Below, piece by piece: positions 2,907-45,708 of a stretch of DNA of 64,000 nucleotides. The stretch lies in assembly GCF_003790525.1 (NCBI RefSeq), contig NZ_CP033635.1. The stretch is one strand, 5' to 3'. The notes under the pieces were generated by a model. It did no database searches and was not told where the DNA came from. It saw only the letters and a program-made list of their open reading frames with translations. The position numbers and the translations under genes were made by a program. The number at the start of each line of letters is the position of its first letter. Positions within the stretch are counted from its first letter, which is position 1. This DNA is from Escherichia coli. Lineage in GTDB: Bacteria > Pseudomonadota > Gammaproteobacteria > Enterobacterales > Enterobacteriaceae.

Positions 2907-3401
2907 ATGATGAAAACTGTTAAACATCTTCTGTGCTGTGCCATTGCCGCCAGCGCATTAATTTCCACCGGGGTGCATGCTGCGTCCTGGAAAGATGCGC
3001 TCTCCAGCGCAGCCAGCGAACTTGGCAACCAAAACAGCACGACACAGGAAGGCGGTTGGTCGCTCGCTTCATTAACTAGCTTGCTTAGCAGCGGGAACCA
3101 GGCCTTAAGCGCAGATAACATGAACAATGCCGCAGGCATACTGCAATACTGCGCGAAGCAGAAGTTGGCTTCGGTAACCGATGCCGAAAACATCAAGAAT
3201 CAGGTACTGGAAAAACTGGGCCTGAACAGTGAAGAGCAAAAAGAAGACACCAACTATCTGGATGGCATTCAGGGTTTGCTGAAAACCAAAGATGGTCAGC
3301 AACTCAATCTGGATAATATTGGAACGACTCCGCTGGCAGAAAAGGTGAAAACCAAAGCCTGCGATCTGGTGTTAAAGCAGGGGCTGAACTTCATTTCCTG
3401 A
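2907..3401 (+). CDS. yjjA: YjjA, secreted DUF2501-family protein
   Basis: ORF 2904..3401; signal-peptide-like N-terminus MKTVKHLLCCAIAASALISTGVHA; synteny. Confidence 0.85.
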   Translation: MMKTVKHLLCCAIAASALISTGVHAASWKDALSSAASELGNQNSTTQEGGWSLASLTSLLSSGNQALSADNMNNAAGILQYCAKQKLASVTDAENIKNQVLEKLGLNSEEQKEDTNYLDGIQGLLKTKDGQQLNLDNIGTTPLAEKVKTKACDLVLKQGLNFIS

Positions 3402-3654: not shown

Positions 3655-5946
3655 TTGTCAGAACTACTCTCTTTCGCCCTTTTTCTCGCCTCTGTGCTGA
3701 TTTACGCATGGAAAGCGGGACGTAACACCTGGTGGTTTGCAGCCACGTTAACGGTGCTGGGGCTATTTGTCGTTTTAAATATCACCCTGTTTGCCAGCGA
3801 CTATTTTACTGGCGATGGTATTAACGACGCGGTTCTCTATACCTTAACCAACAGCCTGACCGGTGCTGGCGTCAGCAAATACATTCTGCCGGGTATCGGC
3901 ATTGTGCTGGGGCTGACAGCGGTGTTCGGTGCGCTGGGCTGGATCCTGCGCCGTCGTCGTCATCATCCGCACCATTTTGGTTACAGCCTGCTGGCACTCT
4001 TACTGGCGCTGGGTTCAGTGGATGCCAGCCCGGCATTTCGTCAGATAACGGAACTGGTGAAATCCCAGTCACGCGACGGCGACCCGGACTTTGCGGCTTA
4101 TTATAAAGAGCCGTCGAAAACTATCCCTGACCCGAAACTCAACCTGGTTTATATCTACGGCGAAAGTCTCGAGCGAACCTATTTTGATAACGAAGCTTTC
4201 CCGGATCTCACGCCTGAACTGGGCGCGTTGAAAAATGAAGGCCTGGATTTCAGCCACACGCAGCAGCTGCCAGGAACGGATTACACGATTGCGGGCATGG
4301 TGGCTTCTCAGTGCGGCATACCGCTGTTTGCCCCCTTTGAAGGCAACGCCTCCGCCTCTGTCTCCAGCTTCTTCCCGCAGAACATCTGTCTGGGCGATAT
4401 CCTGAAAAACTCGGGTTATCAGAACTATTTCGTGCAGGGCGCGAATCTGCGTTTTGCCGGTAAAGATGTGTTCCTGAAATCGCACGGCTTCGACCACTTA
4501 TTCGGCTCAGAAGAGCTGAAAAGCGTGGTGGCCGACCCGCACTATCGCAACGACTGGGGATTCTACGACGATACCGTTCTCGATGAAGCGTGGAAAAAGT
4601 TTGAAGAGCTTTCCCGCTCAGGTCAGCGATTCTCACTGTTTACCCTGACAGTCGATACCCATCACCCGGATGGTTTTATCTCGCGTACCTGTAACCGCAA
4701 AAAATATGATTTTGACGGTAAGCCGAATCAGTCATTCAGCGCGGTAAGTTGCAGTCAGGAGAATATCGCGACGTTTATCAACAAAATCAAAGCGTCACCG
4801 TGGTTTAAAGATACTGTTATCGTCGTCTCTTCTGACCATTTAGCGATGAACAACACGGCGTGGAAATACCTTAATAAACAGGATCGCAATAACCTGTTTT
4901 TTGTCATCCGTGGCGACAAGCCGCAGCAAGAGACGCTGGCGGTAAAGCGTAACACGATGGATAACGGCGCGACGGTGCTGGACATTCTCGGTGGCGATAA
5001 CTATCTCGGACTTGGTCGTAGCAGTTTATCCGGGCAGTCGATGTCGGAAATCTTCCTCAATATCAAAGAGAAAACATTGGCGTGGAAGCCGGATATCATC
5101 CGCCTGTGGAAATTCCCTAAAGAGATGAAAGAGTTCACCATCGACCAGCAGAAAAACATGATTGCCTTCTCGGGTAGCCATTTCCGTTTGCCGCTGCTGT
5201 TGCGGGTTTCAGACAAACGCGTGGAACCGCTGCCGGAAAGTGAATACTCAGCACCGCTGCGTTTCCAGCTGGCCGATTTCGCTCCACGCGACAATTTCGT
5301 CTGGGTTGACCGTTGCTACAAGATGGCACAACTTTGGGCTCCGGAACTGGCACTCTCCACCAACTGGTGTGTCTCGCAAGGGCAGCTTGGCGGTCAGCAA
5401 ATTGTCCAGCATGTTGACAAAACAACATGGAAGGGCAAAACGGCATTTAAAGATACGGTCATCGACATGGCGCGTTACAAAGGCAATGTCGATACGCTGA
5501 AGATTGTTGATAACGATATTCGCTACAAAGCCGACAGTTTCATCTTTAACGTCGCCGGTGCGCCGGAAGAGGTGAAACAGTTTAGCGGGATTTCTCGTCC
5601 GGAGTCGTGGGGCCGCTGGTCCAACGCTCAGCTGGGCGATGAAGTAAAAATCGAGTATAAGCATCCGCTGCCGAAGAAATTTGACCTGGTGATTACCGCC
5701 AAAGCATACGGCAATAACGCCAGCCGTCCTATTCCGGTACGCGTAGGCAATGAAGAACAAACCCTTGTACTGGGCAATGAAGTGACCACCACCACGCTGC
5801 ATTTCGATAACCCAACCGATGCCGACACGCTGGTAATTGTGCCGCCGGAACCTGTCTCAACCAACGAAGGGAATATCCTCGGACACTCGCCGCGTAAGCT
5901 CGGGATCGGCATGGTGGAGATTAAAGTGGTAGAACGTGAAGGGTAA
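3655..5946 (+). CDS. opgB: Phosphoglycerol transferase I (OPG biosynthesis), sulfatase-family
   Basis: 763 aa from TTG start; N-terminal TM helices then sulfatase-like domain; recognised as MdoB/OpgB; synteny. Confidence 0.9.
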
Positions 5947-20975: not shown

Positions 20976-21305
20976 TACCCTTAACCTACTAATACGAAGC
21001 GGACGAGGATAAAACCCTATCATTTTCCGTTCGCTTCACTATTTTATTTCGTTCCAACACCCATTAAAATTAAAAATATAATTCTGCCATAATTTCCTGA
21101 ACACAGATGTAATTACATTGCCACCACTCATACTTTTAAAAATAATTTATATGATAGACGTCCTATTGAGGCGTAATAGATGTATTAATTTCCAAATACG
21201 CAAACATTCTGGTACAGTCCAAAAAAGAAAAATCATCAACCAAAACAATCAGCAAATAAATTAACAACGATTGAATCATAATCAACACGAATACAAGAGA
21301 TTAAC

Positions 21306-23156
21306 ATGGCAACAATAATCCCAACAATCAGTAGCTGCAACGATAAAATTACTGCCGGAGAGAAAAGGCTGGCAAGAATTCTGGAAAGAGGACTAGGCGA
21401 AGAGTGCTGCTGTTGGTATGACATTCCCACGGGTGATAAGCATCTTCACCCAGATTTTATGATACTTTCGCCAGAAAAAGGCATTATTTTTCTCGAGGTA
21501 AAAGATTGGTTTATTACAAAAATAAAAAAAGCCAACAAGTCTAATGTGTTGTATGAGACACAAAATGGTATTCAATCTTTAAAGAATCCGATAGAACAAG
21601 TTAGGCGATATGCTTTCGAAGCTGTAAACCAGTTAAAAAAAGACCCCCTATTGTGCCAACAGGATGATCGTTACAATGGCAATCTTCTTTTCCCCTATGG
21701 ATATGGCGTCTACTTTAGTAATATTACACGAGAAGCATTAAATAATAAATTTACTCAAGAAGAGCTGCTCGGGATCTTCCCATCAGATCTCATCATCTGC
21801 AAAGACGAAATAAATGAATTCATGTCAAAAGAGGATGTTTCATCCAAAATACATTCGTTGATTAAATATGACTTCAAATGTCATGCTACACAAGAACAGT
21901 TGAACAGGATTAGATGGCACTTATACCCCGATGTCAGAATAGAAAGGGAAAAGAGAAGTAAAAACCGTGATGAATTTAGTGTCGATGCACCAACCATCAT
22001 TTCTATCCTGGATACTCAACAGGAACAACTTGCCAGAAGTATGAGAGATGGCCACCGGATCATTCATGGTGTTGCAGGTTCAGGGAAGACATTGATCCTC
22101 TATCATCGCTGTCAGGAATTAGCGAAAAAAAATGACAGCGAAAAGCCAATTCTTGTCATTTGCTACAATATTACTTTAGCCAAAAAACTTCGGTCGATGT
22201 TCATCAATCATCCCTTTGCAGAGAAAATAAAGGTTAAAAATTTTCATGCTTGGTGTTTCCAACAAATTAAAGAAAACAAGATCACTATTCCAGAAGGGGA
22301 TAATATTTTTGAAAATATGGAGCTAGCGTTGACTGATGGTTTCAAGACAGGAAAAATAAAACCAGAACAATACAGCGCTGTATTAATTGATGAAGGACAT
22401 GATTTTAAGCCAGAATGGTTAAAAATCCTGGCAAAAATGACTGACTCTCAGGACGAGAATTTGCTATTCCTTTATGATGATGCTCAGTCAATTTACCAAA
22501 AAAAGAAAGCATTAGACTTTACACTGTCCAGCGTAGATATTAAAGCGACAGGACGCACAACCATTCTTAATATAAATTATAGAAACACACAGCAAATCCT
22601 ACACTTTGCCAGTTGCATTGCATTTAATTATCTTAATAGCCATATCGATAGTTCTTTAACCTATCATAAACCTGCTGCGGGAGGAATGAATGGCGATTAT
22701 CCCAACCTTGAACATTTCGACACACAGGACGAAGAAATAGCACGAGCAGTCGAATGGATTACAGAGCAAAATGAACAAGGGATTCCGTGGTCTGAAATTG
22801 CTATACTAAGTCCATCAACTCACACCCTTTCTAACTCTCTAAGCTCTGTACTTGAATCGAAAAACATCCCCTTTAATCTTATTGTAAGCTCTGCAGATAA
22901 AAAGTCCTGGACGCCAGAACAAGAGCGTATTTCTGTTATGCCATTACCCAGCAGTAAAGGACTTGAGTTTCACTCAGTTGTCATTATTGATGCAGCGAGA
23001 ACACGGGATAATAGCGATGATTTGAGTGAGGATATAAAGAGACTCTATGTAGGTTTTACCCGAGCACGTTGCAATCTCTTGGTAACCTTGCACGGTGAAG
23101 GTGCGTTAAATGAGCATCTACTAAAAACCTATGAGCAAAGCCCACAATATATGTAA
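21306..23156 (+). CDS. NERD-domain nuclease fused to SF1 (UvrD-like) helicase; candidate single-gene anti-phage protein (Nhi-like architecture)
   Basis: 616 aa; NERD/PD-(D/E)xK-like N-terminus (HPDFMILSPEKGIIFLEVKDW); Walker A GVAGSGKT; Walker B VLIDEGHDF; UvrD_C-like RLYVGFTRARCNLLV; sits in an AT-rich block in the slot K-12 uses for mrr-hsdRMS. Confidence 0.75.
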   Translation: MATIIPTISSCNDKITAGEKRLARILERGLGEECCCWYDIPTGDKHLHPDFMILSPEKGIIFLEVKDWFITKIKKANKSNVLYETQNGIQSLKNPIEQVRRYAFEAVNQLKKDPLLCQQDDRYNGNLLFPYGYGVYFSNITREALNNKFTQEELLGIFPSDLIICKDEINEFMSKEDVSSKIHSLIKYDFKCHATQEQLNRIRWHLYPDVRIEREKRSKNRDEFSVDAPTIISILDTQQEQLARSMRDGHRIIHGVAGSGKTLILYHRCQELAKKNDSEKPILVICYNITLAKKLRSMFINHPFAEKIKVKNFHAWCFQQIKENKITIPEGDNIFENMELALTDGFKTGKIKPEQYSAVLIDEGHDFKPEWLKILAKMTDSQDENLLFLYDDAQSIYQKKKALDFTLSSVDIKATGRTTILNINYRNTQQILHFASCIAFNYLNSHIDSSLTYHKPAAGGMNGDYPNLEHFDTQDEEIARAVEWITEQNEQGIPWSEIAILSPSTHTLSNSLSSVLESKNIPFNLIVSSADKKSWTPEQERISVMPLPSSKGLEFHSVVIIDAARTRDNSDDLSEDIKRLYVGFTRARCNLLVTLHGEGALNEHLLKTYEQSPQYM

Positions 23157-23173
23157 AAATGATAAATTATCTC

Positions 23174-23205
23174 CATAACGCCCGGTAACGCTGTACCGGG
23201 CGTTA
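23174..23205 (+). terminator. Perfect 13-bp stem-loop downstream of NERD-helicase gene
   Basis: ataacgcccggta-acgctg-taccgggcgttat, 18 nt after stop; no strong T-run, so may be a structural element rather than a classic terminator. Confidence 0.5.
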
Positions 23206-23288
23206 TGAATGTATATCTAAGATATTAGTCACGCCTGATAGCCGCTACCAAAAACGCCATCATCTCCCTCTCATCTTTGCTGTGATAA

Positions 23289-23594
23289 AAGCGTACCATT
23301 TTGCTGTTAAATTCCAGCGCTTTAGCCACTGGAATTAACAAGTTCAAACTTCCGACAACGAAGTTCCAGTTATTACAAAAATTACTGGCAAAAGAGATGA
23401 AAAGCGTAGTTGACAACACATCGAAATATACTGACTGGAGTAAACGCGATGATATTAAAGCGAAACTGAAAGTTGAACTTATTCTGCTTCTACACAAGCA
23501 TAAGTTCCCGCCAGTAGCGAATGATGATGTTTATATGGGTGTGCTGGCACAGGCAGAGAATTTTAAAGAACATCATATGAGTGCTTTAAATTAA
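23289..23594 (+). pseudogene. Frame-closed 3' gene fragment, possibly the C-terminal domain of a type I restriction HsdR subunit
   Basis: Open frame begins straight after a TAA with no ATG or SD (track ORF 23301..23594 opens on TTG); helical, K/E-rich sequence ...VDNTSKYTDWSKRDDIKAKLKVELILLLHKHKFPPV... that I associate with HsdR C-termini (recollection, not verified). Confidence 0.3.
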
Positions 23595-23602
23595 TTATGA
23601 AG

Positions 23603-23628
23603 GCCGGATACACTTTGTTATCCGGCCA
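23603..23628 (+). terminator. Hairpin after the gene fragment
   Basis: ggccggata-cactttgt-tatccggcc, 9-bp stem, 8 nt after the fragment stop. Confidence 0.45.
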
Positions 23629-23713
23629 TTGTGAATTAACGTTAATTTCTCTTCCAGATATTTCCAGTAACGCTTTTATTATTTTCTATTTTTAGCTGGA
23701 CTTTCCCTGTATT

Positions 23714-23733
23714 TACTGATGATATGTCCAGGT
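23714..23733 (+). promoter_or_regulatory. Candidate LexA (SOS) box upstream of symE
   Basis: tactgatgatatgtccaggt contains CTG-N10-CAG about 80 nt upstream of symE ATG; K-12 symE is SOS-inducible. Confidence 0.45.
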
Positions 23734-23769
23734 ATTTAGCGCGGTGCGAATGTGCGCCAACACACCCGC

Positions 23770-23850
23770 ACCGCTCATCACAATCACTATTTATGGAGAA
23801 TAGTAATCATGACTGACACGCATTCTATTGCACAACCGTTCGAAGCAGAA
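23770..23850 (-). ncRNA. symR: SymR antisense sRNA (antitoxin) opposite the symE 5' end; position approximate
   Basis: Inferred from K-12 arrangement, where SymR is encoded antisense across the symE start; not independently visible in sequence. Confidence 0.4.
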
Positions 23851-24150
23851 GTCTCCCCGGCAAATAACCGTCAATTAACCGTGAGTTATGCGAGTCGCTA
23901 CCCGGATTACAGCCGTATTCCCGCCATCACCCTGAAAGGTCAGTGGCTGGAAACCGCCGGTTTTGCTACCGGCACGGCGGTAGATGTCAAAGTGATGGAA
24001 GGCTGTATTGTCCTCACCGCCCAACCACCCACCGCCGAAGAGAGCGAACTGATGCAGTCACTGCGCCAGGTGTGCAAGCTGTCAGCGCGTAAACAAAAGC
24101 AGGTGCGGGAATTTATTGGGGTGATTGCCGGTAAACAGAAAGTCGCCTGA
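23809..24150 (+). CDS. symE: SOS-induced toxin SymE (AbrB/SpoVT-fold endoribonuclease-like)
   Basis: In-frame ATG within ORF 23752..24150 gives [30 protein letters not shown]..., 113 aa, recognised as SymE. Confidence 0.9.
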
Positions 24151-24158
24151 TACATTGA

Positions 24159-24182
24159 CCCGGTAGCGCCAGTGCTACCGGG
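24159..24182. terminator. Bidirectional hairpin between convergent symE and GmrSD-like gene
   Basis: cccggtagc-gccagt-gctaccggg, 9-bp stem, in the 46-bp convergent gap. Confidence 0.6.
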
Positions 24183-24196
24183 TATTATTCGCCGTG

Positions 24197-26290
24197 TTAG
24201 ACCAACGCGCTCTCCATCTGTTTTTCAAATGCCTGACGAATTAATCCCATAACGTAAGGAAGTTGTGCGAGGTCGCTGAAACCAATTTCCACATCACCAT
24301 TGCCCCAGCGCCCAACATTTGTCACATCTTTGGCAATACCTTTCGGATCGACCAGTTCATGAAACTGCATATTAAGCGACAATCGCAGTCGGCTTTTTTG
24401 CGGCACAACATCAACAAAATTCGTTTCCGCTTTAAACGCAATATAGAGCTTCAATACTTCCTGCGTGATCCCTGCGTCCAGGCGCATAACTTCATCGCGA
24501 AGATGATCAAATAACACCCGGCTATGCGAACCATCAGCAAGAAAAGGATAATCACTCAGGCTATAACTGGTTTTGTTTTCAGGCTGCGCCCGATAAACAG
24601 CTAAAACCTCTTCAGGAAGAGCAGGCGCTTGCCAGACCTGAACCGCGAGATCGGCCAGACGATCGGCACGGGCGCGAATGGCGGCTTCATCCCATTTTTC
24701 GCACTGTCCAAGACCGATATTCAAATAAAGCGGGCTATGCTTAAAGCCGTCTTCAATATCGCGTTTTTCCGCGAAAGGTCTGTCACTGTAGCGGGAGTTA
24801 TAGCGCGTTAATGTGAGATTCCCCAACGTATGTAACAGTTCTTTATGCACACGCTGCCAGTCGCTTCCCAGCTCTTCACGCCATTTAGCCGACAAATTTT
24901 CGTTCTGCGGCATAATATGCTCAATCGTAAACTCTTCCACGCGCTCTCTGCGTTTATCGTTTTCCAGTCGTCGTAACCAGTAGCTGCGACTGCGGAAGTT
25001 ATAGAGATCGCGAACTTTTAATTCCCGTTTAAATTCATCATCGTTGGGGAAACGACGATATGAAGGCAGATTCAGAAAATGTACCTGAATACTTTCCAGA
25101 TATTTTTCTTTAATAATGACCTTATAAAAGGTAGCAAACGTCTTGTTAAGAGAATTTGTCGGAATCGCACATACTGCACGGCGGAAAACATAAGATTCAA
25201 TTAAACGAATTATGCTCAGGAAATCTTCGTGAGGCAAATCGCCATTTTTATAGTCATGATAAAGCGCCAGTAAGAAAGGATACGCCACATCGACCTTTAA
25301 CTCGCGCAAATCCTGAAAAGCCGTAGCAAGCGATTTGTCACTTTCTTTACCCAATGCCATTGCACAGTAATACTCCGCGTAGATGTGAATATCTTCAACC
25401 AGGTGATCCACGCCTTTTTCAGCAACACTCTGGCTGCGGGCATGGAGTTTAAATGCCTCATAGACTTCATCTGTACGAGGGATCTCCCCCGTTTTTACCG
25501 TCAGATAATGACGCATAAAGCTGTCAAAATATTCGCTGTAACCTTGCTGACCAAAAGCGACTTCCATTGGACGCCAGTGATCTTCATACAACCGGGTTTG
25601 ATGCTCTGGTTCGAGACCCATCAGAATAAAATTGCGCACCAGATCGGCCTGACTTAACGCCTTACCGGTAGAGTTCATACTTTCAAAAATCAGTTGCGGA
25701 TTATCCTGACCACGATTAAGCGCCACATCGACAATTAATAATTTTGCTAACCCACGACATAAGGGGATCAAGTCATCACCGAGTTTGGCAATTTGCTCAT
25801 CAAAGAAAGTAAAGTTTTCCATTATTCGATGGGAATAGTTTTCTGGCATTGGTCTTTGTTTTATTAACGCCAGCAAACTGTCTTTATCAGTCTCGGTCAG
25901 CAGTAATTTAAATCCTTTCTCGCCGGACTCATAAGGATTGAGTAAATAATAATTACGCAATTTCATTGCTGAAAAGCCATCAAAAACTTCGTCTTCGCCA
26001 AGATGACGCGATAAAGCCTCAATCAGCAACATTGCGGTCGTCAGCCTTTGTTGACCATCAATGACCAGTAACGGAGAAATACCAGAAACCTGATACAACC
26101 CCTGCTCAATATAAACAACCGAACCGATAAAATGCGCTGATATATCGTCACGCTTTCCGGCACGAATGATGTCGTCCCAAAGTTGCCGACATTGTTGTTC
26201 TGTCCATGAATAAGTCCGTTGATAAATGGGAATCACAAACTGCTGCGAACGTTTTAAAAAATCGAGTAGGCGGGCTTCTGTAGCTTTCAT
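24197..26290 (-). CDS. DUF262 (ParB-like NTPase) + DUF1524 (His-Me finger nuclease) protein: GmrSD-family type IV restriction-type enzyme
   Basis: 697 aa; DUF262 signature LVIDGQQRLTT near N-terminus; C-terminal HNH-like block EHIMPQN ... LHTLGNLTL; occupies the mcrBC side of the immigration control region. Confidence 0.8.
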   Translation of the reverse strand: MKATEARLLDFLKRSQQFVIPIYQRTYSWTEQQCRQLWDDIIRAGKRDDISAHFIGSVVYIEQGLYQVSGISPLLVIDGQQRLTTAMLLIEALSRHLGEDEVFDGFSAMKLRNYYLLNPYESGEKGFKLLLTETDKDSLLALIKQRPMPENYSHRIMENFTFFDEQIAKLGDDLIPLCRGLAKLLIVDVALNRGQDNPQLIFESMNSTGKALSQADLVRNFILMGLEPEHQTRLYEDHWRPMEVAFGQQGYSEYFDSFMRHYLTVKTGEIPRTDEVYEAFKLHARSQSVAEKGVDHLVEDIHIYAEYYCAMALGKESDKSLATAFQDLRELKVDVAYPFLLALYHDYKNGDLPHEDFLSIIRLIESYVFRRAVCAIPTNSLNKTFATFYKVIIKEKYLESIQVHFLNLPSYRRFPNDDEFKRELKVRDLYNFRSRSYWLRRLENDKRRERVEEFTIEHIMPQNENLSAKWREELGSDWQRVHKELLHTLGNLTLTRYNSRYSDRPFAEKRDIEDGFKHSPLYLNIGLGQCEKWDEAAIRARADRLADLAVQVWQAPALPEEVLAVYRAQPENKTSYSLSDYPFLADGSHSRVLFDHLRDEVMRLDAGITQEVLKLYIAFKAETNFVDVVPQKSRLRLSLNMQFHELVDPKGIAKDVTNVGRWGNGDVEIGFSDLAQLPYVMGLIRQAFEKQMESALV

Positions 26291-26386
26291 TCTGACGTCT
26301 TTCCGTGAAGCGATGATTTCGCAATAATAACCACTTCCTTGTGGAGGTTATAGAGAAATCCTGTTTATCCGCGACGAACTGCCCCA

Positions 26387-28382: not shown

Positions 28383-29339
28383 TTAGTACTCGATCCATGG
28401 ATCGCGCTTGCTTTCAGGCAAGGGCTGCTCTAATGCCTGCATTTGCTCTGCCGAAAGTCCGGTATATCGTTGTATCCATTCAGGATCCGCCCCATTCTGC
28501 AACAACAATCGGAGGAGGCTCTTTTCCCCTTCTTCTTTCCCTTCTTTCCTCCCCCTCTCCCTTCCCAACAGCCATCCATCATTATGAATTCGCTCTGCAA
28601 TCGTCATTATTCGCTCCCTGTGTTGTGGCATTCGACGGATAAGTTCGCTGATAAACTCATTAAAACGCGCTTCATCGCCAGTCAGTAAAATGTAATTTAA
28701 CAGCGCGGTTATCTGGCTGTCATTAGCGCACCCTGTAACCAGTAATACTGCCAGTTGATCAATAAGCCCCATTAGATCGCGCTGGCGAATATGCTTTTGG
28801 ATCAACTCCAGCAGGGCGACTCTGCGATGCTGCACAATCTCGTCGTCTGGCACGACAGTGACATCCACCAGCGGGAACGCTGCGGTATAAAGCTTCCGCG
28901 CGGTAGCCGGGTCGGCAAATTCATCCAGCCAGCACAAAGACCAGGGGTAAGGACTACGGCTACTGTGATAAAACAGCATCGGGATGACCAGCGGTAGCGG
29001 CCGGCGTTTATCATGCTCGATATGGCGCTGCATCACCGCCATGGAATATCGCATCAGGCGAAAGGCCATATGGATATCCTCGCGGCTCTGATGTTCAATC
29101 ACCACATAAATATAGCCATCTCCTTCGCGGGTCTTTACCGACCACAGAATATCGGAATGTAGCGCCCGCAATTTTTCATCGACAAAGCTGGCGTATTCCA
29201 GTTTTAAGCTGTCGAGATCGCACAGTTCACGTAAATCTTTGGGTAAGTGGATCTCCATAAAATCCCGCGCGGTGTCAGGGTGGGTGAGAAAAGATTTAAA
29301 TAATGCGTCATGCGGCGTGCTGGTCGTGAAGTTTGTCAT
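28383..29339 (-). CDS. rpnD: Rpn-family recombination-promoting nuclease (PD-(D/E)xK, YhgA-like), intact
   Basis: 318-aa uninterrupted ORF recognised as YjiP/YjiQ (RpnD); acidic/lysine-rich C-terminal tail. Confidence 0.8.
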
Positions 29340-42500: not shown

Positions 42501-44754
42501 AAGTAGTGAGACCGCCCGCACCGATGCAAACGGTGATGCCGTGGTTACATTGCGAGGCACAAAAGCGGGTGAGTTTACAGTTACGGCGACGCTGACCAGA
42601 AATAACACCGTTGCTCATCAGCAAGTCACTTTTATTGGGGATACAAACAGTGCGCAGCTCCAGCCGCTGACTGCCTCATTAAATACCATTGTTGCGGGTG
42701 ACAGTACGGGGAGTACCCTGACGGCAACGATCCTGGACGCTTACCAAAATCCGCTTAAAGACCAGCTGGTCACTTTCCAGAGTAACGATGTCACTCTAAG
42801 TGGAACAGAAGTCACCACCAATACGCTGGGTCAGGCGACGGTAACAATGACCAGCAATATTGCCGGGCAACATAACGTCGTGGTGAGCCGGAAAGCGCAA
42901 GTCTCCGATAATAAAACGTTTAGTTTATCAGTGCTGCCGGATGAAAGTTCGGCGAAGGTAATAAGTATAACCGGAGCCGAAAAAACGATAACGGTTGGCG
43001 AAAACATCACGCTACGGATACTCGTCCAGGACGCGTTTAACAATGTAATATCAGGTCAACGCGTCAGATTAAGTGCGCAGCCAACAGCTAACATTACGAT
43101 AGGCGATACGGCTTACACCGATAATAACGGTTATGCATACGTTAACCTTATTAGCACCCAGCCTGGGGTTTATCAGGTGACGGCAACGCTGGACAATAAC
43201 AGTAGTAGTAAGGTTGACGTGAATGTGGCAAATGGCAAGCTCGAGTTAACATCATCGAAGCCAGAAACCACGGTCCATAACAGTGAAGGTATTACGCTTA
43301 CCGCAACGGCGAGAAATGCGCGGGATGAATTGATGCCTGGGCAAATTATCACCTTTAGCGTAACGCCTGAAGGTGCAACGCTAAGCAATACAGGGGAAAT
43401 CCTTACTGACCAGTCTGGTCAGGCCAAAGTGACGCTGACCAGTAACAAAGTGAATGTCTATACCGTTACGGCCACAATGGGCAAAGATGTTCCCGTTCAG
43501 AGCCAGGTAACGGTTGCGGTTAAGGCAGATGCTAAAACGGCACATGTTGTGAGCGTCGTGGCTTCTCCTGACACCATAACCGCCGACGGCGTTGATAGCA
43601 GCACCATCACGTCACGAGTAGAAGATGATTACGGATTCCCGGTTGAAGGTGTCGATGTTAGTTATGCCTTAGACACCAAAGGCAGCCCGGTAGTTAATAT
43701 TCCAACTACGCGTACCGATCAGTCCGGGCAAGTCACGGCGACAATAACCAGTACATTGGCAGAAACCTTAATAGTCAATGTGCAAGTTCCTGGTACAGCC
43801 AACCAATCCGCAACCATTACATTGGTTGCCGGCACGGCCGATGAAAGTAAGTCAATTTTGAAATCCGACGTTGACACTCTGAAGGCTGACTACCAGCAGA
43901 GCGCAAAACTTACGCTAACATTGCAAGACAAGTACGGTAACCCGATAGTGACGTCTGATCATCTGGAATTTGTCCAGTCAGGCCCCTTCGTGAACTTTCT
44001 CAAGTTGAGCGATATTGATTACAGCCAAAGAAATTATGGCGAGTACACCGTGACTGTCACTGGCGGAAAAGAGGGAACAGCGACTCTCATTCCCATGCTG
44101 AACGGGGTTCATCAGGCAAACTTAAGCGTATCGCTGAATCTCATCCGCTCGATAAAAGAAATGTCCGGTCATGTCACTGCAAACAACCATACCTTCTCCA
44201 CGGCTAAATTCCCGAGCGAAGGTTTTGCAGGAGCGTATTACACACTCAACAATGATAACTTTGAAGCGGGTAAAACCGTTGATGATTATATGTTTTCAAG
44301 TTCACAGAGTTGGGTGTCGGTCGATGCGTCAGGTAAGGTTTCTTTCGCAAATATCGGCGATCAAACGTCAGTCACAATAAGCGCTGTTCCCCGACAAGGA
44401 GGTACAACCTACCAGACCTTAATTAAGCTGAAAGGCTGGTGGGTGAATAATGGAAATCATACCAATATCTGGCTAGCTGCCAATGCGCTCTGTCATGCTA
44501 AAAATGATGGATATACTCTTCCTGCCATCACACATTTGACGTCTGGAGAAAACCAACGCACACAGGGATCGCTATATGGTGAATGGGGGAACGTTGGAGC
44601 GTTTTCCAGTAATTCGCAATTTACACAAGGTGCTTACTGGACAAGTGAATCTGATGATTACAATCGGCACTACTATGTGCAGATGCTAACGGGTATGACC
44701 GGAAGCGACGCTGATTCCAGCCCCCAACTGACCGCCTGCCGTAAATCACTTTAA
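39514..44754 (+). CDS. Inverse autotransporter adhesin (intimin/invasin family): LysM, beta-barrel, tandem Big_1 repeats, C-type-lectin-like tip
   Basis: 1746 aa; signal/LysM-like N-terminus, intimin/invasin-like beta-domain (about aa 150-440), roughly a dozen 90-100-aa Ig-like repeats, C-terminal lectin-like domain ending ...CRKSL; absent from this position in K-12. Confidence 0.85.
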   Translation: MASTNAHQIKNNDQNSLCGLGDKIRRLTAGVCLFTQIFFPVMATAQNVVHAKPQTTVSSPSPLIENNTVPYTLGALESAQSVADRFGISLEELRRLNQFRTFARGFDNVRQGEELDVPATTLQKSHEQQNAVPPANGENTLENQIASTSQRVGPLLSQDMNSEQASGMARGWASSEASGAMTDWLNNFGTAKISLGVDEDFSLKNSQFDFLHPWYDTPDYLLFSQHTLHRTDDRTQINTGLGWRHFTPSWMSGINLFFDHDLSRYHSRAGLGAEYWRDYLKLSSNAYIGLTGWRSAPELDNDYEARPANGWDLRAEGWLPAWPQLGGKLVYEQYYGDEVALFDKNDRQSNPHAITAGLNYTPFPLLTLSAEQRQGKQGENDTRFAVDLTWQPSSSMQKQLNPDEVAGRRSLAGSRYDLIDRNNNIVLEYRKKELIHLSLQDPVKGKSGEIKPLVSSIQTKYALKGYNIEAAALEAAGGKVRTSGKDITVTLPGYRFTNTPETDNTWSIDVTAEDVKGNLSRHEQSMVVIQAPTLSQKDSLLSVNPLTVAADKKSTTTLTVTAHDSDGTPVPGLALQTRSEGVQDITLSDWTDNGDGSYTQMLTAGTTSGSVTLTPQINGESAVKESIVVNIVPVVSSRDHSSITIDNVSYYAGDDIKVRVELKDDSNQPVAYQKEELVKAVTVENSKPGATIVWHEEQPGVYAANYPAHKQGTALRAQLSLHNWNAPLQSHIYNIEANQNKARVATLSATNNDVYADKKTFNTLTINVTDESDNPLTNHQVTFKNEKGSAEFVEPPQQNTDAYGVATINMVSQVAEENTISATLPNGFSQRIIAKFVSDSSTPKFKQLVADPDTIIAGNSQGSTLTATVTDFHNNPLKDMKVNFVAPGGSQLDNTTATTDQSGIVRVHLTSSKAGSYSVDASLEADKNIHQSVTITVVPNREQSVMTLNAGSGSAIANNTNTVILTASVKDVYGHPLPDEDVKFTLPASMTGNFTLSSETARTDANGDAVVTLRGTKAGEFTVTATLTRNNTVAHQQVTFIGDTNSAQLQPLTASLNTIVAGDSTGSTLTATILDAYQNPLKDQLVTFQSNDVTLSGTEVTTNTLGQATVTMTSNIAGQHNVVVSRKAQVSDNKTFSLSVLPDESSAKVISITGAEKTITVGENITLRILVQDAFNNVISGQRVRLSAQPTANITIGDTAYTDNNGYAYVNLISTQPGVYQVTATLDNNSSSKVDVNVANGKLELTSSKPETTVHNSEGITLTATARNARDELMPGQIITFSVTPEGATLSNTGEILTDQSGQAKVTLTSNKVNVYTVTATMGKDVPVQSQVTVAVKADAKTAHVVSVVASPDTITADGVDSSTITSRVEDDYGFPVEGVDVSYALDTKGSPVVNIPTTRTDQSGQVTATITSTLAETLIVNVQVPGTANQSATITLVAGTADESKSILKSDVDTLKADYQQSAKLTLTLQDKYGNPIVTSDHLEFVQSGPFVNFLKLSDIDYSQRNYGEYTVTVTGGKEGTATLIPMLNGVHQANLSVSLNLIRSIKEMSGHVTANNHTFSTAKFPSEGFAGAYYTLNNDNFEAGKTVDDYMFSSSQSWVSVDASGKVSFANIGDQTSVTISAVPRQGGTTYQTLIKLKGWWVNNGNHTNIWLAANALCHAKNDGYTLPAITHLTSGENQRTQGSLYGEWGNVGAFSSNSQFTQGAYWTSESDDYNRHYYVQMLTGMTGSDADSSPQLTACRKSL

Positions 44755-45459: not shown

Positions 45460-45708
45460 CTCGTTTTCGTCCCTGGATTTTCTGTTTTTATTTACTTATG
45501 TCATTGTCACTGGGTTTATGAATTTACTGCAATTCAATCCAGCGCAGAACCTTTTCCCTATAGCGTAATTTTTCCGCTATGCAAAAAACGCATAGCCAGA
45601 AACATACTTGCATTTTCCCCATACCCACATGGCTGATAAGGCTTTTCAGCTCCAGGAATTTTCCTGGCTCAAGCAACACACAAACACAAAAAAACAATGG
45701 GGATTGTT

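Follow-up and report, generated by a model that had tools for sequence, protein, structure and literature searches.

What has become of the toxin-antitoxin module symE/symR where the defence genes on both of its sides have been replaced: is it still an ordinary damage-inducible toxin gene with its antisense RNA, or is its expression now coupled to the new neighbours? We address this question for a 64-kb stretch of Escherichia coli DNA (the window, meaning the whole stretch analysed), which is that of E. coli SMS-3-5 (NC_010498.1; 601 bases around symE match at 100%). The replaced interval is the immigration control region (ICR), between yjiA and yjiS, where a preliminary description had placed a retained symE/symR module with a candidate LexA box and had raised the possibility of read-through or shared SOS control with the genes alongside. 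The module is very probably an ordinary SOS-inducible symE toxin gene with antisense symR and a LexA operator, at its usual place in the ICR. All cis elements and the protein are identifiable and intact, lie in the known positions and geometry, and are conserved (Table 1).

The toxin gene had been correctly recognized. Its reading frame is intact and full length, the product scores 74.8 bits against the Pfam family SymE_toxin (PF08845; cut-off 29) and 227.2 bits against the NCBIfam equivalog NF010128 (cut-off 132; 1-112 of 113 covered), and it aligns without gaps to K-12 SymE with 106 of 113 residues identical (94%). The antisense gene, likewise called beforehand, is a full-length match to RF01809 opposite symE (92.8 bits, gathering score 61, E=1e-17). 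It overlaps the symE leader, the Shine-Dalgarno sequence GGAG (23795-23798), and the start codon. The RNA folds into two stem-loops (-40.9 kcal/mol, z=-6.7), and 10 of its 28 base pairs show compensatory changes among 24 distinct sequences from several genera. As an observation apart, the six bases at the tip of stem-loop 2 read in inverted form (TTGGCG in place of CGCCAA) in strain 4/0 (locus 3041-3261) and in some other strains and genera; the change resembles a flip of a palindromic hairpin tip and leaves the stem intact. In strain LST200A (locus 5001-5200), symE is interrupted by IS1 a few codons past its start, so that LexA box, promoter, and symR are left without a toxin gene and the antitoxin RNA is an orphan.

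The promoter of symR can be compared with mutational evidence. The plus-strand hexamer CATTCT at 23821-23826 overlaps the symR -10, and its mutation to CACTCC abolished SymR in K-12 (Kawano et al. 2007, PMC1891008); the -10 is unchanged in 11 E. coli loci. For a wider comparison, 38 loci were retrieved with a pattern inside symR that contains no bases of the LexA box, covering Enterobacter, Citrobacter, Klebsiella, Raoultella, Kluyvera, Leclercia, Lelliottia, Kosakonia, Pantoea, and others, roughly 15 genera in all. Across these loci the symR promoter is conserved as a TA(G/C)AAT -10 and a TTCTG(C/G) -35, despite sitting inside the symE coding sequence.

Table 1. Features of the symE/symR locus and its flanks, in window coordinates
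Feature	Position	Strand	Remarks
symE coding sequence	23809-24150	+	113 codons and TGA; ATG at 23809-23811
symR	23814 to 23738	-	77 nt; Rfam RF01809, model positions 1-77 of 77
symR promoter -10, TAGAAT	23822-23827	-	within symE codons 5-7; 7 nt upstream of the RNA 5' end
symR promoter -35, TTCTGC	23845-23850	-	within symE coding sequence
Predicted LexA operator (SOS box), TACTGATGATATGTCCAGGT	23714-23733		CTG 23716-23718, CAG 23729-23731
Candidate symE -35, TGGACT	23697-23702	+	conserved block cTGGAcTT, 13-14 nt upstream of the box in 38 aligned loci
Conserved symER module	~23678-24146	+	only segment common to all cassette combinations; from match boundaries and sliding identity
NERD + UvrD-like helicase gene	21306-23156	+	616 aa; Pfam NERD, UvrD-helicase, UvrD_C; RefSeq '3'-5' exonuclease'
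Hairpin, 14-bp stem	23174-23207		just 3' of helicase gene; -25.9 kcal/mol, z=-5.9
hsdR 3'-end remnant (type I R-subunit pseudogene, N-terminus missing)	23385-23594	+	Pfam T1RH-like_C, 267-328 of 329
REP-like hairpin, 9-bp stem, GGCCGGATA / TATCCGGCC	23602-23627		after hsdR remnant; -19 kcal/mol, z=-4.75
Hairpin, 10-bp stem, 6-nt loop	24158-24183		between symE stop (24150) and GmrSD-like stop (24197)
Single-chain GmrSD-family type IV restriction homologue	24197-26290	-	697 aa; Pfam GmrSD_N, GmrSD_C, DUF5655; PADLOC hits

The LexA box occupies the place of a known operator. It is identical at 18 of 20 positions to the K-12 box TACTGATGATATATACAGGT of yjiW, the K-12 symE gene, and has the same position and distance from symR. 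In K-12, this site has been published as the symE operator bound by LexA (PMC1891008), it overlaps the symE promoter (PMC3874152), and symE expression in K-12 depends on LexA by RNA-seq (PMC11228462). The distance had been given as about 80 nt, and we find 77 nt between the end of the 20-mer, whose CTG-N10-CAG core spans 23716-23731, and the symE ATG. Upstream of the box, TGGACT is probably the symE -35; this would put the -10 inside the box, in agreement with the published overlap of LexA site and promoter. The sequence TATTTAG (23733-23739) was considered as the symE -10 and rejected, being 30 nt from TGGACT and at a distance from the box that varies by 0-6 nt among genera. It is nonetheless a conspicuous element, strongly conserved across genera, which lies directly 3' of the box and abuts the symR 3' end.

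Several points weigh against reading the locus as a normally regulated toxin. By a weight matrix trained on 18 E. coli sites from the literature (PMC3009722 Table 4), the box has 7.9 bits, which makes it fifth in the window, and shuffled sequence contains on average ~2.8 sites of equal or better score per 64 kb. Among three E. coli alleles, the one here, with the GTC spacer, scores lowest: the majority allele reaches 12.3 bits and that of K-12 13.6. The -35 and -10 of symE are assigned from conservation only; a simple sigma-70 consensus scan missed both the symE promoter and the symR promoter, the latter being known, and is uninformative here. Induction of symE in K-12 is itself modest, 1.5-fold after AZT with a 2.5-fold lexA dependence (PMC11228462). 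Lastly, the biochemical activity of SymE is disputed in the literature: by the account in PMC11894785, SymE was initially presented as an RNA-cleaving protein and later as one that binds DNA regardless of sequence and so compacts the nucleoid, the DNA binding with nucleoid condensation being cited there from Thompson 2022.

The score thus does not distinguish the symE box from chance in a 64-kb background, and the bare CTG-N10-CAG pattern, with 28 occurrences in the window against ~15 expected, is uninformative. These figures are what one would see if the box were a chance motif with no regulatory role. The site is, however, orthologous to one that was verified experimentally, and its core triplets keep their position across genera despite spacer turnover: CTG and CAG keep a constant distance from symR with 95-100% conservation (37 loci of other genera; 38 aligned), and conservation of the spacer positions in the same alignment runs from 39% to 100%. 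Agreement with the consensus is much closer in many of these boxes than in that of the window, with scores of up to 20.8 bits. We therefore rejected the weight matrix as a sufficient test and used orthology and the phylogenetic footprint instead; the box is judged non-random from its position and conservation, not from its score, and a chance origin retains hardly any probability. Scoring the site against a LexA matrix had been suggested as one check for it; that check on its own returns chance level, and it is orthology and conservation that support the box.

Other LexA-like sequences of the window are of separate interest. The 20-mer TACTGCAATTCAATCCAGCG (45525-45544) outscores the symE box at 10.5 bits; it is intergenic, 66 nt upstream of a homologue of kptA (RNA 2'-phosphotransferase), and probably arose by chance. 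The top LexA-like 20-mer, at 42633, falls inside an open reading frame (39514-44754, plus strand) for a 1746-aa inverse autotransporter/invasin-like protein with an IAT_beta domain and many Big_1 and Invasin_D3 repeats.

Granted an operator, its strength has to be weighed. The window box differs from that of K-12 by A-to-G at 23726 and A-to-C at 23728, which change ATA to GTC in the spacer; CTG, CAG, both flanks (TA...GT), and 8 of the 10 spacer bases are identical. With a 33-nt box probe, complete E. coli genomes give 322 exact matches, 2013 matches with a single mismatch, and 522 of the K-12 type with two, and the GTC allele of the window is the rarest of the three. By the heterology index (HI), computed from the 18-site matrix in the better orientation, the K-12 ATA allele has 7.94, the commonest E. 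coli allele ATC 9.4, and GTC 11.8. The published HI for K-12 yjiW is 7.9 (values of Courcelle et al. 2001, as tabulated in PMC11228462), and the functional polB and yoaA boxes have ~13 (PMC11228462). At 11.8, the window allele lies within the functional range (HI below ~13-15), with a weaker fit than the K-12 box.

The main rival explanation is that the operator has decayed through the A-to-G change at 23726, leaving GTC materially weaker or non-functional and symE weakly or not at all repressed by LexA; control would then fall to SymR and Lon alone, or induction would be earlier and leakier than in K-12. Such decay would account for the drop in matrix score to 7.9 bits from the K-12 and majority values and for the rise in HI from 7.9 to 11.8; moreover, the half-site altered is the better one, on the right (CTGTAT in K-12, CTGGAC here), and the allele is a minority one (exact in 322 of 2857 genomes). 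Against decay stand the intact CTG and CAG triplets, an HI still below that of polB and yoaA, and a training set of 18 sites that penalizes rare bases too heavily. In addition, the weakening spacer G (...ATGTACAGG) is common at the orthologous boxes of Citrobacter, Klebsiella, Kluyvera, Kosakonia, and Pantoea. We consider a decayed operator quite unlikely.

For an ordinary SOS-inducible symE, events would run as follows. LexA at 23714-23733, overlapping the symE core promoter, would silence the gene until DNA damage triggers LexA cleavage. A constitutive 77-nt SymR started at 23814, which can pair without a mismatch with the symE leader, Shine-Dalgarno sequence, and start codon, would block translation, and Lon would degrade residual SymE protein; SymE that accumulates after prolonged SOS would inhibit growth. 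The toxicity and regulation of K-12 symE, namely the LexA site, induction by mitomycin C, repression by SymR, and degradation by Lon, have been described (PMC1891008). LexA binding, SOS induction, SymR expression, and toxicity may be expected in SMS-3-5 from homology with K-12.

The closest known system is the type I toxin-antitoxin module symE/symR of K-12 itself (yjiW/ryjC; PMC1891008), with the same gene order and overlap geometry, the same yjiA-yjiS locus, the same symR -10 hexamer inside symE codons, and the same LexA box position. From K-12, SMS-3-5 differs by seven SymE substitutions, two box-spacer substitutions, and several G-U and compensatory changes in SymR stem 1. It also differs in both flanks: on the left an hsdR stub and a NERD-UvrD helicase gene stand in place of mrr-hsdRMS, and on the right a convergent GmrSD homologue in place of the co-oriented mcrBC. 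The systems tisB/istR-1 and dinQ/agrB (PMC4147584) likewise have a toxin gene under LexA repression, the translation of which is blocked by a small antisense RNA made constitutively. Their toxins are small hydrophobic membrane peptides, whereas SymE is a 113-aa protein of the AbrB/MazE fold, and SymR, unlike the RNAs of those systems, is antisense in the strict, cis-encoded sense and overlaps the toxin gene at its 5' end.

The surroundings of the module are those of the ICR, a long-studied defence island that extends from yjiA to yjiN (PMC12707154). RefSeq annotates on the same DNA the order btsT, yjiX, yjiA, '3'-5' exonuclease', an incomplete type I restriction endonuclease gene, symE, a GmrSD-domain gene, yjiS, yjiR, and an Rpn-family gene, and the RefSeq annotation, eight other strains, and the literature definition agree in placing variable restriction genes between the anchors yjiA and yjiS/yjiR...yjiN. 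The equivalent interval of K-12 contains mrr, hsdR, hsdM, hsdS, symE, mcrB, mcrC, and helicase pseudogenes. Of the interval 20976-26386, K-12 strains match only 23684-24146, and symE is therefore the sole gene of the interval shared with K-12, as the preliminary description had stated. The Rpn-family (YhgA-like) recombination-promoting nuclease gene (28383-29339, minus strand) flanks the island; rpn is one of three ICR toxin-antitoxin systems according to a 2025 review (PMC12707154).

Cassette-like variation of the ICR between the same anchors, with variable type I and type IV genes, has been described (He et al. 2015, PMC4437046; EcoSal Plus 2025, PMC12707154) and is attributed in citing papers to Sibley & Raleigh 2004. 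The same literature lists symE-symR among the ICR toxin-antitoxin systems and notes a GmrSD homologue replacing McrBC beside an 'endoribonuclease' gene (PMC4437046, PMC12707154). Our comparisons put the module at the centre of this variation. On its left, K-12 has mrr and EcoKI-type hsdRMS; IR53017 has hsdM and hsdS; O157:H7 and F11 have M and S subunits, with an EcoAI-family hsdR in O157:H7; JCH767, 4/0, and A33 share a 3264-nt R-subunit gene, which in JCH767 belongs to an M-S-R-ordered type I system; and strain 2A has the NERD-UvrD helicase gene and the hsdR stub. On the right, mcrBC is found in K-12 and GmrSD in IR53017, O157:H7, and F11; JCH767, 4/0, A33, and 2A have nothing before yjiS. 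The combinations seen are type IA with McrBC, type IA with GmrSD, type IB with GmrSD, type ID with none, and the stub with GmrSD.

Homology begins at ~23678 and ends at 24146 in every comparison, and with these constant boundaries and the discrete classes of flank, the module behaves as shared homology for cassette exchange. Of 5426 complete E. coli genomes, 2872 (53%) carry it; the left (hsdR-end/symE) junction occurs in 967 complete genomes, the right (GmrSD) junction in 1337, about a quarter, including O157:H7, and the whole SMS-3-5 arrangement, at >=80% coverage (that is, at least 80%), in 40 of the 5426. The term 'retained' used beforehand thus holds insofar as the module is there, but its presence is not special to this strain, since it is a standard ICR linker. 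Compared with a typical ICR, SMS-3-5 has no working type I system on its left side, and its full combination is uncommon: it joins the left side of strain 2A to the right side of the GmrSD class. In a sliding comparison, it is identical to the M-S-R/type-ID-like lineage to ~23710 and to the GmrSD lineage from 24127. SMS-3-5 is thereby a mosaic whose lineage switch, or crossover, lies inside the symE module. The module is retained as a homology block between left cassettes (type I restriction-modification families) and right ones (McrBC, GmrSD, or none), and in SMS-3-5 the left cassette is reduced to the hsdR stub and the NERD-UvrD helicase gene.

As to coupling with these neighbours, shared SOS control finds no support: the best LexA-like score is 2.8 bits upstream of the helicase gene and -4.3 bits upstream of the GmrSD gene, with no site at either. 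Coupling by transcription can be considered on each side. The left neighbour matches PADLOC C3a187 'NERD+UvrD', a candidate defence family, with 468 bits, and is more weakly similar to GajB, Nhi, and DRT-associated helicases. The remnant that follows it, which RefSeq lists as 'incomplete', corresponds to the end of the intact 3264-nt hsdR of JCH767, 4/0, and A33. The 97-aa open reading frame 23301-23594 was rejected as a gene, as only its last ~69 codons derive from hsdR.

Read-through from the helicase gene or the hsdR stub might yield SOS-independent symE mRNA. Both are co-oriented with symE, and sequence inspection finds no U-tract on the plus strand after either intervening hairpin; the first of them (23174-23207), a possible terminator or insulator, is terminator-like in a pattern scan on the minus strand only. 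Deletion of hsdSMR in CFT073 altered expression of the flanking yjiW, which was called a polar effect (PMC8287963). Yet any such transcript would have to pass two very stable hairpins and 650 nt of non-coding and pseudogene DNA between the helicase stop and symE, and it would retain the full SymR target, so that translation would stay blocked; moreover, the hsdR-end/symE junction, found in 967 genomes, is nothing new to SMS-3-5. Read-through into symE from the left is unlikely.

On the right, a convergent GmrSD-like gene had been described, and the Pfam matches bear this out. Frame analysis finds one intact frame, and the RefSeq division into a 387-aa coding sequence and a 'DUF262 pseudogene missing its C-terminus' is unsupported by the SMS-3-5 sequence. 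The orthologue is likewise intact in F11 and IR53017; in O157:H7 F8952 it is split into two open reading frames by the loss of one nucleotide at gene position 801. The hairpin between the two genes had been noted as having a 9-bp stem; it is present and so placed, but its stem has 10 bp, with 9 G/C-rich pairs and one A-U. It folds with -21 kcal/mol (z=-3.3 in 53-nt context) on the plus strand and -19.6 kcal/mol on the other, belongs to the GmrSD-side junction, being present wherever that junction occurs, and is absent from K-12. We considered it as a bidirectional intrinsic terminator and rejected this: the stem qualifies, but there is no U-run (the tail is AUUAUUCG on the plus strand and CAAUGUAU on the minus strand), and the terminator scan does not list it.

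A GmrSD transcript could accordingly be imagined to pass this hairpin and run antisense through symE, causing interference or supplying an additional antisense RNA. The stop codons are only 46 nt apart, and the missing minus-strand U-tract and terminator call would permit it. The hairpin is, however, stable on both strands, and no effect has been reported for this arrangement in 1337 genomes including O157:H7, so that we hold antisense transcription from the right to be very unlikely. Transcriptional coupling from either side would be compatible with an ordinary LexA- and SymR-controlled symE, and does not exclude it.

The locus, its LexA control, the antisense RNA, and its place among exchangeable restriction cassettes have all been published already, and the significance of the present case beyond correct annotation is small. 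It could be larger if symER were functionally wired to the flanking restriction cassettes instead of being a passive linker. DNA breaks that the neighbouring type I or type IV nucleases make in the cell's own DNA would then trigger SOS and with it the nucleoid-condensing SymE, as a fail-safe or abortive response, and the three box alleles (HI ~7.9, 9.4, and 11.8) would each tune the trigger threshold to the cassette alongside. This idea is prompted only by the constant physical linkage and the allele series, and we regard it as highly improbable. Three by-products may be of use. The module is now quantified as a homology block for cassette exchange (53% of genomes, with 967 left and 1337 right junctions), and the three natural alleles of the symE LexA operator are suited to a binding or induction experiment. 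Finally, the cross-genus footprint of the operator, the probable symE -35, and the symR promoter indicates that this regulatory design is conserved well beyond E. coli.

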